The notes beneath the pieces were generated by a model. The model saw only the letters and a list, made by a program, of their open reading frames with translations. It made no database searches and had not been told where the DNA came from. The translations under genes and the position numbers were made by a program. 43,067 nucleotides of DNA from a virus (Duplodnaviria; Heunggongvirae; Uroviricota; Caudoviricetes), in IMG/VR virus record IMGVR_UViG_2657244961_000008, positions 1 to 43,067 of that record; one strand, 5' to 3'. The number at the start of each line of letters is the position of its first letter. Positions within the stretch are counted from its first letter, which is position 1. Positions 39,208 to 41,649 of the stretch are shown in pieces.

Positions 39208-41649
39208 ATGAGCACTGATAAAGAAGAATTTGCACTATATTGCGAAGCAAAAAATGACAAAGTAAGAAAACGCCTGGGAATTAAAGGTGGTTTTTACTGG
39301 ACTACAGCAAAAAAATTATCTGTTGCAATCTCCCGCTGCATTACCGCAATGGATGACAACGATTATGATGAAGACGACTTTAAAAAACCCGTCCGCGTCA
39401 ATTTGCCCGTTGTTGACGACCTTCCGCCAGAAGGCGTGTTTGATACTGAATTCTGCAACCGCTATGAAAAAGGCGGGAAAGATGGCATCACAATGACATT
39501 TATCGGCCCTTCCCCCTCTGTTCAGGACAAACCAGCCAGCACTGACAATACCAACATCAACGGCGAAGACATGACTGAGATTGAGGAGAGCATGCTTCTG
39601 CCTGTCTCCGGTCAGGAACTGCCCATTCGTTGGCTTGCTCAACACGGCAGCGAAAAACCAGTAACGCACGTTTCACGCGACGAACTCCAGGCATTACACA
39701 TTGCACGGGCTGAAGAACTACCGGCTGTTACTGCCCTGGCTATTTCGCATAAAACCAGTCTGCTCGACTCGCTGGAGATTCGCGACCTCCACAAACTGGT
39801 TCGTGACACTGACAAAGTTTTCCCTAATCCTGGTAATTCAGACCTGGGACTAATAACTGCTTTTTTCGAAGCATACCTGGACGCTGACTACACTGATCGG
39901 GGTCTGCTGACAAAAGAGTGGATGAAAGGAAATCGTGTTTCACGCATCACCCGCACGGCTTCCGGTGCTAATGCTGGCGGTGGGAACAAAACCGATCGCA
40001 ATCCGAATTTAGTACACACCCTCGACACACTGGATGTGGAGATTGCAGCAGCCACACTTCCGATGGATTTTAATATTTATGAAATTCCGGGCAGCGTTTA
40101 TCGTCGCGCAAAAGAAGTAGTCCTGAACAAAGAAAGTCCGTTCAAAGAATGGTCCGCAGCACTTCGTGCAACCCCGGGTATTCTGGACTATTCCCGCGCC
40201 GCTATTTTTGCACTTATCCGAAGCGCACACCCTGAATTTTATCACTACCCGGGACGCCTTCAGGGGTATATCAACGCCTATTTGACGGAAACTGATCACG
40301 AGAACCCCAGCAAGGAAACTCTCACAGCTGCCCGGCATACGCCGGAAAAAGATATCCTGGAAGAAATTAACCGCGAGGTGGTTACTGAGCGTGAAACAGA
40401 AGAAGAAAAACCACAACCATCTGACGCAATGGCAGGTGAACAGGCAACAACTGAAACAATGGAACCGGATACAACTGAACATGGCCAGAACGCGCAGTCG
40501 CTGGATGCTCAGTCGCAGGTGAGTTCCGCTAACCAAGTAAAAGTCACCGCTGACGAAGTAAACAAAATTATGCAGGCAGCCAATATCAGCCAGCCTGACG
40601 CCGATAAGTTACTTGCTGTATCGCGTGGTGAATTTGTTGAGGGGATTAGCGACCCTAATGATCCGAAATGGGTCAAGGGGATCCAGACTCGCGATTCTGT
40701 GAACCAGAACCAGCATGAATCGGAACGGAACGACCAAAAAGCGGAACAAAACAGCCCAAATGCGTTACAAAACGAGCCAGAAACGAAACAATCCGAACCA
40801 GTAGCGCAACAGGAACCGGAAAAAGTCTGCACCGCCTGCGGTCAGAGCGGTGGCGGCAACTGCCCTGATTGTGGCGCGGTGATGGGCGACGCAACATACC
40901 AGGAAACATTCGATGAAGAGAATCAGGTTGAAGTTCAGGAAAATGATCCGGAGGAAATGGAAGGCGCTGAACATCCACACAAGGAGAACCCTGGCGGCAA
41001 TCAGCATCACGCCAGCGATAATAAAACTGGCGAGACGGCAGATCACTCAATTAAGGTGAACGGTCATCACGAAATCACATCCACCAGCAGGACGTGTGAC
41101 CATCTAATGATCGACCTTGAAACCATGGGAAAAAATCCTGATGCCCCGATCATCTCAATAGGTGCAATATTTTTCGATCCGCAAACCGGAGATATGGGAC
41201 CGGAATTTAGTAAGACTATCGATCTGGAAACTGCTGGCGGAGTCATTGATCGGGACACCATTAAATGGTGGCTTAAGCAATCACGCGAAGCGCAATCTGC
41301 CATTATGACCGATGAAATCCCGTTAGATGATGCACTGTTACAATTGCGGGAATTTATCGACGAAAACTCCGGTGAATTTTTTGTTCAGGTCTGGGGAAAT
41401 GGAGCCAACTTCGACAACACGATTTTGCGCCGTTCATACGAACGGCAGGGGATCCCCTGCCCGTGGCGTTACTACAACGATCGCGATGTACGCACAATCG
41501 TTGAGCTGGGGAAAGCCATAGACTTCGATGCCAGAACGGCTATTCCATTCGAAGGTGAGCGCCATAATGCACTTGATGACGCTCGTTACCAGGCAAAATA
41601 CGTTTCAGTTATCTGGCAAAAACTGATCCCGAGTCAGGCTGATTTTTAA
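39208..41649 (+). CDS. large exonuclease with C-terminal DEDDh (DnaQ-like) 3'-5' exonuclease domain
   Basis: 813 aa. C-terminal motifs IDLETMG (Exo I), WGNGANFD (Exo II) and [10 protein letters not shown] (Exo III), plus an internal CTACG...CPDCG zinc ribbon and an acidic linker. Confidence 0.75.

Follow-up and report, generated by a model that had tools for sequence, protein, structure and literature searches.

What kind of enzyme is encoded by the long exonuclease gene that lies just ahead of xis and int in this prophage, and is it half of a phage recombinase? The gene occupies 39208..41649 (+ strand) of IMG/VR record IMGVR_UViG_2657244961_000008, a Caudoviricetes sequence that we analyzed over its whole length of 43,067 nucleotides (the window). 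An earlier note, written from the letters alone, had described an 813-residue DEDDh exonuclease with an unfamiliar N-terminal region, a zinc ribbon, and no annealing partner. We find a complete coding sequence in which the N-terminal scaffold of RecE (RecE-N), an acidic linker with a CxxC..CxxC motif, and a DEDDh exonuclease domain follow one another (open reading frame [ORF] list, RefSeq, and Pfam families PF06630 and PF16473). By alignment, the protein is a RecE scaffold carrying a different nuclease module, swapped in at the natural RecE domain boundary.

The scaffold, the nuclease, and the joint between them

The C-terminal domain (aa 631-806; 41098..41625, + strand) is identified by Pfam, by a PDB sequence match (8KEL), by alignment, and by AlphaFold and Foldseek. 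It matches PF16473 (Rv2179c-like 3'-5' exonuclease) at aa 632-803 with 227.6 bits against a cutoff of 27 (E 1e-67), over profile positions 2-177 of 177. The three DnaQ-like motifs that the earlier note had read there are all present: ExoI D636/E638 (codons 41113-41115 and 41119-41121), ExoII D736 (41413-41415), and ExoIII H786-x4-D791 (41563-41565 and 41578-41580), all on the + strand and aligned with D7, E9, D119, H186, and D191 of T4 DexA. DexA (8KEL/8KEN) supplies the only solved structures in PDB matched by sequence. It also heads the Foldseek search of PDB (E 6e-8) with an AlphaFold model built from a 47-sequence alignment, in which the domain has predicted local distance difference test (pLDDT) values of ~90; RNase T, oligoribonuclease (Orn), and REXO2 follow, all of them DEDDh enzymes. 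The alternative that had been set beside the DEDDh assignment, a lambda-Exo/RecE-type fold, was not seen: neither that fold nor a PD-(D/E)XK fold occurs among the top 50 Foldseek matches of the domain, and PF12684, the PD-(D/E)XK family of K-12 RecE, has no Pfam match in the protein. On profiles and model, the protein is a clear PF16473 member and would work as a DexA-type DEDDh exonuclease. These domain assignments are near certain; the enzymatic activity is what we infer from them.

The N-terminal half proved far from featureless, the earlier view of its first 400 residues. The NCBIfam RecE equivalog model (NF007259) aligns with aa 1-615 over model positions 1-602 of 877, and its score of 942.7 bits falls under the curated cutoff of 1269, since nothing in the protein matches the final third of the model. 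PF06630 (Exonuc_VIII) matches aa 57-189 (123 bits, E 1.7e-35), and BLASTP against RecE of the K-12 Rac prophage gives 59% identity, with aa 58-615 corresponding to RecE 50-591. RecE residues 588-866 have no similarity in the 813-residue protein by protein alignment. Three folded parts are predicted in the RecE-like region. The first is an alpha/beta domain (aa 1-100; 39208..39507, + strand; pLDDT ~90-97), whose residues 1-57 diverge from K-12 RecE. A helical domain follows (aa 130-250; 39595..39957, + strand), the block most conserved with K-12 RecE by identity profile, AlphaFold, and PF06630; windowed identity reaches 92-95% at aa 121-240. A second helical domain (aa 265-395; 40000..40392, + strand) is also confidently predicted by AlphaFold, with identity to K-12 RecE of 22-38% at aa 281-400. 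No structural relative of the RecE-N folded region was found.

Between these domains and the nuclease lies the acidic, Gln/Glu-rich linker that the earlier note had remarked on (aa 397-630; 40396..41097, + strand). It is apparent from composition (19 D/E versus 6 K/R in aa 380-455; 16 D/E versus 4 K/R in aa 565-630), from identity profiles, and from pLDDT, which stays below 50 across most of the linker and predicts it to be mostly disordered. K-12 RecE has the same linker. Embedded in it is CTAC-x7-CPDC (C541, C544, C552, and C555; 40828..40872, + strand), a putative zinc-ribbon knuckle that places four of the protein's nine cysteines within 15 residues (aa 541-555). The CxxC pairs are thus where they had been reported (40828..40876), at aa 541-544 and 552-555. 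The zinc-ribbon fold itself is a motif-level call: the Pfam DZR match in this region is not significant (E=0.096) and pLDDT is ~45-59. We gave no weight to this match or to a second insignificant one, to DUF4072 (E 0.61). The motif is kept in K-12 RecE (CNACGQTGGDNCPDC there) and recurs in just 7 of 80 long representatives of the RecE-N family. From these alignments, aa 1-612 are the N-terminal region of Rac RecE, linker and cysteine motif included, and not a novelty.

The joint between the two modules can be placed quite closely. DNA identity to recE is ~95% until about nt 41000, then decays and collapses past GCAGATC at about nt 41045 (A611-D612), and protein homology to RecE stops at TGE(T/V)AD. 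DNA and protein alignments together locate the joint at codons A611-D612-H613 (41040..41050, + strand), near RecE residue 588. The C-terminal nuclease domain of RecE has been assigned to residues 564-866, the N-terminal part being "of unknown function" (PMC11611040), and in Pfam terms K-12 RecE is PF06630 plus PF12684 (PDDEXK-like) where the 813-residue protein is PF06630 plus PF16473. The RecE-N homology ends where the RecE PD-(D/E)XK nuclease begins, and the protein is therefore a scaffold with an exchanged nuclease module.

The wider family points the same way. When aa 1-615 were searched against 1.84 billion 50%-clustered representatives, only 265 relatives came back, so the RecE-N family is narrow. 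Among the 80 relatives of at least 450 aa, the DEDDh domain (52-98% identical) is present in ~18 and a RecE-type nuclease in ~24, the others having neither recognizably. The pairing of PF06630 with PF16473 is also found in four representatives that are ~40% identical overall. Ten others have tails of 250-450 aa without a Pfam domain, matching neither the DEDDh nor the RecE nuclease. Proteins named "RecE-2," seemingly without a nuclease domain, have been reported in lambdoid phages (PMC12315714), and the ten may be these, or truncated gene calls, or bearers of a third, unrecognized module.

A second kind of head is joined to the same C-terminal part. Residues 441-813 are 88-100% identical to the 823-aa YdfE-type exonuclease of phage Tritos and Qin-like prophages, and the first 440 aa of the Tritos protein form a different head, 99% identical to the K-12 Qin pseudogene ydfE. 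K-12 ydfE (L192:5079-5999) is an IS2-truncated copy of the first 255 aa (99% identical) of the Tritos exonuclease (L005:3641-6109). It was considered as a remnant of the 813-aa gene and rejected, being a stub of the Tritos-type form. The exonuclease gene family is strongly mosaic: of the four possible pairings of a head (RecE-N or YdfE-N) with a nuclease (PD-(D/E)XK or DEDDh), three are observed, on a common linker.

Is the gene real, and is it alive? It runs from ATG at 39208 to the stop codon at 41649 in one uninterrupted frame, and a Shine-Dalgarno GAGG (39194..39197, + strand) can be read directly 10 nt 5' of the start. RefSeq has a single coding sequence at the same coordinates (WP_042631013.1, "exonuclease") in Escherichia coli chromosomes with 100% identity across the gene, and the protein is 100% identical to RefSeq "exonuclease" proteins. 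In RefSeq and UniRef, identical proteins are named "exonuclease" or "3'-5' exoribonuclease domain-containing protein"; the entity is already catalogued there, and both of its domains are Pfam families. DNA matches to the gene occur in 4745 of 5426 complete E. coli genomes, and when the N-terminal region was searched against a 90%-clustered protein database the matches were near-identical E. coli copies only. The ORF is not a fusion artifact of a frameshift, another alternative that had been raised: the two-domain architecture recurs at ~40% identity, and in the 80 IMG/VR viral loci whose DEDDh domain is 98-100% identical the ORF is almost always full length (811-831 aa).

It might still be argued that the gene is a decaying, functionless remnant carried passively by defective prophages. 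The IS2-truncated ydfE of K-12 Qin would fit such a history, as would a frameshifted copy in phage PPompW and the many partial database entries. Yet the ORF studied here is intact with all catalytic residues kept, 1245 of the 5426 genomes have at least 80% of the gene covered at one place, the free-living phages Tritos and HannyBb also carry it (in the Tritos-type form), and the architecture is kept down to ~40% identity. We consider decay a highly improbable explanation.

The early-left operon, the missing annealase, and Chi

The exonuclease gene is the last cargo gene of a repressor-controlled early-left operon. A cI-like repressor gene (36594-37241) and its terminator (37263-37283) are followed by TTGACT-17-TAGATT (37310..37338, + strand), which a consensus scan picks out as a candidate pL-type promoter for ydfC-DicF-dicB-ydfD-exo-xis-int. 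It is the only sigma-70-like + strand site upstream of the gene in that scan, which found no promoter-like + strand site directly upstream of the gene itself. Next come a 118-aa ORF (37524-37880, + strand) that matches phrog_21318 (E 1e-66), ydfC, the full-length DicF small RNA (38512-38563, + strand; Rfam RF00039, 76.7 bits) between ydfC and dicB, dicB (38738-38926), and ydfD (38923-39114). Beyond the exonuclease, xis (41702-41980) begins 53 nt past the stop codon and is followed by int (41949-43067). RefSeq and phage records have the same gene order, with potC beyond int. This makes it an operon of the Qin/dicB type, in which the exonuclease gene comes after those of the cell-division inhibitors DicF and DicB. 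A 68-aa ORF on the opposite strand (37659-37865, - strand) overlaps the 118-aa ORF and has two CxxC pairs, CPECG...CKNCG, with weak zinc-ribbon and PHROG matches (E 5.5e-10).

No annealase accompanies the nuclease. When the ORFs of the early region were scanned with Pfam and PHROG, no RecT, Red-beta, Erf, Sak, Rad52-type annealase, SSB, or Gam was found. Nor was there a RecT/Bet/Erf-type gene between cI and int, in agreement with the earlier claim that no RecT/Bet-like partner stands before xis. Related elements tell the same story: RecT was found in none of the 80 related IMG/VR loci, two divergent relatives whose immunity regions differ lack it as well, no annealase is annotated in Tritos or PPompW, which have different integrases, and neither an annealase nor Gam is annotated in Tritos or HannyBb. 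On this evidence from the window and its relatives, the locus is not a standard Exo/Bet or RecE/RecT pair, as had been proposed. Proteins that join RecE-N to a PD-(D/E)XK nuclease do have RecT immediately downstream in K-12 and in two of three other loci sampled. In the third (L189:6565-7380, + strand), the RecT position is taken by a 271-aa protein with no Pfam match and no similarity to K-12 RecT; it belongs to phrog_3657, of unknown function, and may represent an unrecognized annealase family. RecT thus tracks nuclease type across loci: it is missing wherever the PD-(D/E)XK module has been replaced, and annealase and nuclease module come and go as one.

The window contains 19 Chi octamers (GCTGGTGG) where 1.5 are expected, a count reached by none of 100 dinucleotide shuffles. 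Fourteen lie on the - strand and five on the + strand, the - strand being the sense strand of the terminase (TerL and TerS), portal, capsid, and lysis genes; eight of the 14 fall between cro and Q (27395-36006). A recent survey of lambdoid phages defined a "no Rec module, high Chi" class by at least eight Chi in the active (late-gene) orientation and at most six in the other, together with an early-left operon free of annealase, SSB, and anti-RecBCD genes (PMC12315714). None of the members of the operon described here (cI, the 118-aa ORF, ydfC, DicF, dicB, ydfD, exo, xis, and int) is of these kinds, and the prophage fits the published class. High-Chi phages have been proposed to use host RecBCD and Chi in place of a recombinase of their own (Zheng et al., Genome Res 2025, PMC12315714). 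Tritos, a complete and free-living phage, has nine Chi on the late strand and two on the other. One Chi of the window (41081..41088, GCTGGTGG on the - strand) lies within the exonuclease gene, 36 nt downstream of the module joint; the Tritos gene has a Chi equally far from its stop codon, and in HannyBb one lies at a comparable place. Two others form a back-to-back pair (27395-27402, - strand; 27401-27408, + strand) within the methylase gene.

These observations bear on the possibility that the protein is, after all, the exonuclease of a two-component recombination system whose annealing partner is an unrecognized small protein or is supplied by the host. A bona fide recombinase has the same RecE-N scaffold, several small early-left ORFs have no assigned function, and the 271-aa protein shows that the RecT position can be held by a member of an unknown family. 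The polarity predicted for a DEDDh domain, which belongs to a 3'-5' class, argues otherwise, since such digestion would leave 5' overhangs and not the 3' tails on which Red-beta/RecT/Erf annealases are loaded (PMC11611040). In addition, xis follows directly 3' of the gene in every locus examined, and only dicB and ydfD are universally linked to it in the E. coli clade, both being absent from divergent relatives. The high Chi count, in turn, points to reliance on RecBCD. A hidden partner would therefore surprise us greatly.

Elsewhere in the prophage, the only other DNA-transaction genes found lie in the nin/late-regulatory region, all on the - strand: an N6/N4 DNA methyltransferase (27048-28100), a RusA Holliday-junction resolvase (29495-29869), and a DUF968/HNH-like protein (29882-30928). 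An inserted IS10-type element (25421-26691) separates the lysis genes from the Q region, with a 402-aa DDE transposase ORF (25421-26629, - strand) and the RNA-OUT antisense RNA (26622-26691, + strand; 97.3 bits). This insertion may render the prophage defective or change how the late genes are expressed. A match to the sok antitoxin RNA (31523-31694, - strand; RF01794, 106.7 bits) in the nin region implies a hok/sok-type toxin-antitoxin locus inside the prophage, and a full-length match to Rfam IS009 (41-239, - strand; 198 bits) overlaps a tail-fiber-assembly ORF (1-582, - strand).

Probable activity, substrate, and role

The function that we propose follows the order of the modules. The C-terminal domain would use a canonical two-metal DEDDh site (D636, E638, D736, H786, and D791) to remove nucleotides from free 3' ends, and the RecE-N scaffold would supply tethering, oligomerization, or targeting, as for RecE. 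As the last cargo gene of a repressor-controlled operon, the exonuclease is expected to be expressed during lytic development and silent in the lysogen. It would not be half of an exonuclease/annealase recombinase, and the phage that carries it would rely on host RecBCD/RecA; its likely role would be accessory processing of 3' DNA ends in phage replication or recombination.

The substrate is most probably DNA, because the nearest characterized relative is T4 DexA. Family membership does not settle the matter, as PF16473 holds a DNA exonuclease (DexA, itself a member) as well as Rv2179c of Mycobacterium tuberculosis, on which the family was founded and which its description gives as an RNA exonuclease. 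The protein could thus be a 3'-5' exoribonuclease acting during lytic growth on RNA 3' ends, either of the operon transcripts, DicF included, or of host RNAs. PGAP calls many copies "3'-5' exoribonuclease," the structural neighbors include RNase T, oligoribonuclease, and REXO2, and DicF belongs to the same operon, ~650 nt upstream of the gene. Against this, it is the DNA exonuclease DexA that comes nearest among characterized relatives by sequence and fold, several of the structural neighbors act on DNA too, and the same scaffold otherwise bears a dsDNA exonuclease (RecE). The gene also occupies the position of DNA-transaction genes in lambdoid phages (PMC12315714). RNA as the natural substrate seems to us improbable.

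The likeness to DexA raises a different possibility, an antiphage defense of the HREX type. The nuclease would then serve superinfection exclusion, degrading the 5-hydroxymethylcytosine (5hmC) DNA of incoming T-even phages and sparing the unmodified DNA of host and prophage. Genes adjoining int are often accessory or defense cargo. The domain belongs to DexA's Pfam family with DexA as the closest solved structure, and stand-alone homologues of 176-190 aa are widespread in enterobacteria. EcD, a stand-alone E. coli homologue of DexA, has been reported to cleave 5hmC DNA but not unmodified dsDNA and to protect against T4 (PMC12153337). The residues concerned do not favor such a role here. DexA W152, needed for cleavage of T4 DNA, corresponds to Y756 in a well-aligned N-D-R-D-V-R-T block, at a position that varies among W, Y, C, V, and L in homologues, and DexA D169, an acidic residue likewise needed for that cleavage, aligns with A770, in a gapped part of the 26%-identity alignment where the position is uncertain. 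DexA D90, which is alanine in EcD, is retained as D708. No PADLOC defense model matches, the gene has no promoter of its own that the consensus scan could detect, and dicB, in the same repressor-controlled operon, has to stay silent in a lysogen. EcD (HAK9828821.1) is not among the top 120 homologues of the protein. The 23-mer of the EcD reverse primer has no exact match in IMG/VR or GTDB genomes, and the forward 17-mer gave 99 mostly chance matches, the real relatives being only a Hydrogenophaga metagenome-assembled genome (41% identical) and Phocaeicola (30%). We think a defense role unlikely, if somewhat less so than action on RNA.

We therefore return to a lytic-phase 3'-5' DNA exonuclease that works outside any two-component recombinase. 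Taken as a whole (activity, DNA substrate, timing, and place outside a recombinase pair), we find this reading somewhat more convincing than its negation; the particular biological role proposed above is possible but we would not bet on it. Several points tell against both. The DNA substrate is argued from 26% identity and fold rank, in a family that includes the RNA exonuclease Rv2179c. The promoter part of the case for lytic expression is built on a consensus scan only, and RecE-N is without a structural relative, so that tethering or targeting is conjecture. It has been reported that 3'-5' exonucleases of the DnaQ type usually inhibit homologous recombination (PMC12315714), and a pro-recombination role is therefore not obvious in a phage that depends on RecBCD 3' tails. 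Finally, HannyBb, one of the three complete phages checked, has only five Chi on the late strand and two on the other.

A bolder interpretation of the mosaic is that the RecE-N (or YdfE-N) head and the linker with its cysteine knuckle make up a polarity-agnostic platform that brings a nuclease to a common target. We offer this as speculation, with a rather low chance of being right. If it were, the target could be a DNA end, the replisome, or RecBCD, for instance, whichever nuclease is carried. The DEDDh version would then be the functional counterpart of RecE for annealase-less lambdoid phages that rely on Chi/RecBCD/RecA, trimming or reshaping 3' ends, for example, so that host RecBCD-Chi recombination favors the phage. 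The nuclease found on the scaffold would also predict the recombination strategy of its phage: a PD-(D/E)XK module would go with RecT and a low Chi count, a DEDDh module with a high Chi count and without an annealase.

Comparison with known systems

Our literature searches found no paper that describes a swap of the RecE nuclease for a DEDDh domain on RecE-N, or that tests the protein. What has been published is that lambdoid phages carry genes for DnaQ-type nucleases close to int (Zheng, Casjens, Davidson, Amundsen & Smith, Genome Res 2025, PMC12315714); the main text of that paper does not mention a fusion to the RecE N-terminal scaffold. None of what we report amounts to a new kind of system. 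The natural swap maps the RecE module boundary (~residue 588) independently of truncation experiments, and shows RecE-N to be an autonomous scaffold that is reused with unrelated nucleases. It also offers a testable link between the type of nuclease on that scaffold and the recombination strategy of the phage.

As regards the nuclease, M. tuberculosis Rv2179c resembles the domain as founder of PF16473 and in its DEDDh chemistry, but it is a stand-alone exoribonuclease by the family description. It is not in the PDB sequence matches or the top 50 fold matches, and is therefore a more distant relative than DexA. T4 DexA and EcD (HREX) share the DEDDh pentad and PF16473, and DexA is the best solved-structure match by both sequence and fold. 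They are only ~22-26% identical to the domain, however, and both stand alone (DexA has 227 aa) where the domain here forms the C-terminus of an 813-residue protein. DexA also has extra loops that are missing from this protein, in which its 5hmC-recognition residue W152 is replaced by Y756 and D169 aligns, less certainly, with A770.

Closer to home is the 823-aa YdfE-type exonuclease of Qin-like prophages and Tritos, which shares the dicB-ydfD-exo-xis-int neighborhood and the part corresponding to aa 441-813, with linker, cysteine motif, and DEDDh domain. Its own N-terminal ~440 aa (MSKVFICA...) are different, at most 10-40% identical to the RecE-N head, and the K-12 ydfE stub has no match to the N-terminus of the 813-residue protein.

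The most instructive comparison is with RecE itself (exodeoxyribonuclease VIII of K-12 Rac). Several phage records give that name to the protein, which is a misannotation because the RecE nuclease domain and recT are both absent and the score lies below the equivalog cutoff; on the same three counts the protein is not a RecE. This corrects a widespread label ("exodeoxyribonuclease VIII, dsDNA 5'-3' exonuclease") for an enzyme whose polarity is almost certainly the opposite. The N-terminal region of RecE enhances linear-linear recombineering. The disappearance of RecT together with the PD-(D/E)XK domain is consistent with a need of the C-terminal domain for RecT. The two proteins have in common a homologous N-terminal ~590-610 aa with PF06630, the acidic linker, and CxxC..CxxC, and the genes of both stand at one and the same spot of the early-left operon, ahead of xis and int. 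They part company at the C-terminus, where RecE has the PF12684 5'-3' dsDNA exonuclease and an overlapping recT, whereas the 813-residue protein has a DEDDh domain and no recT.

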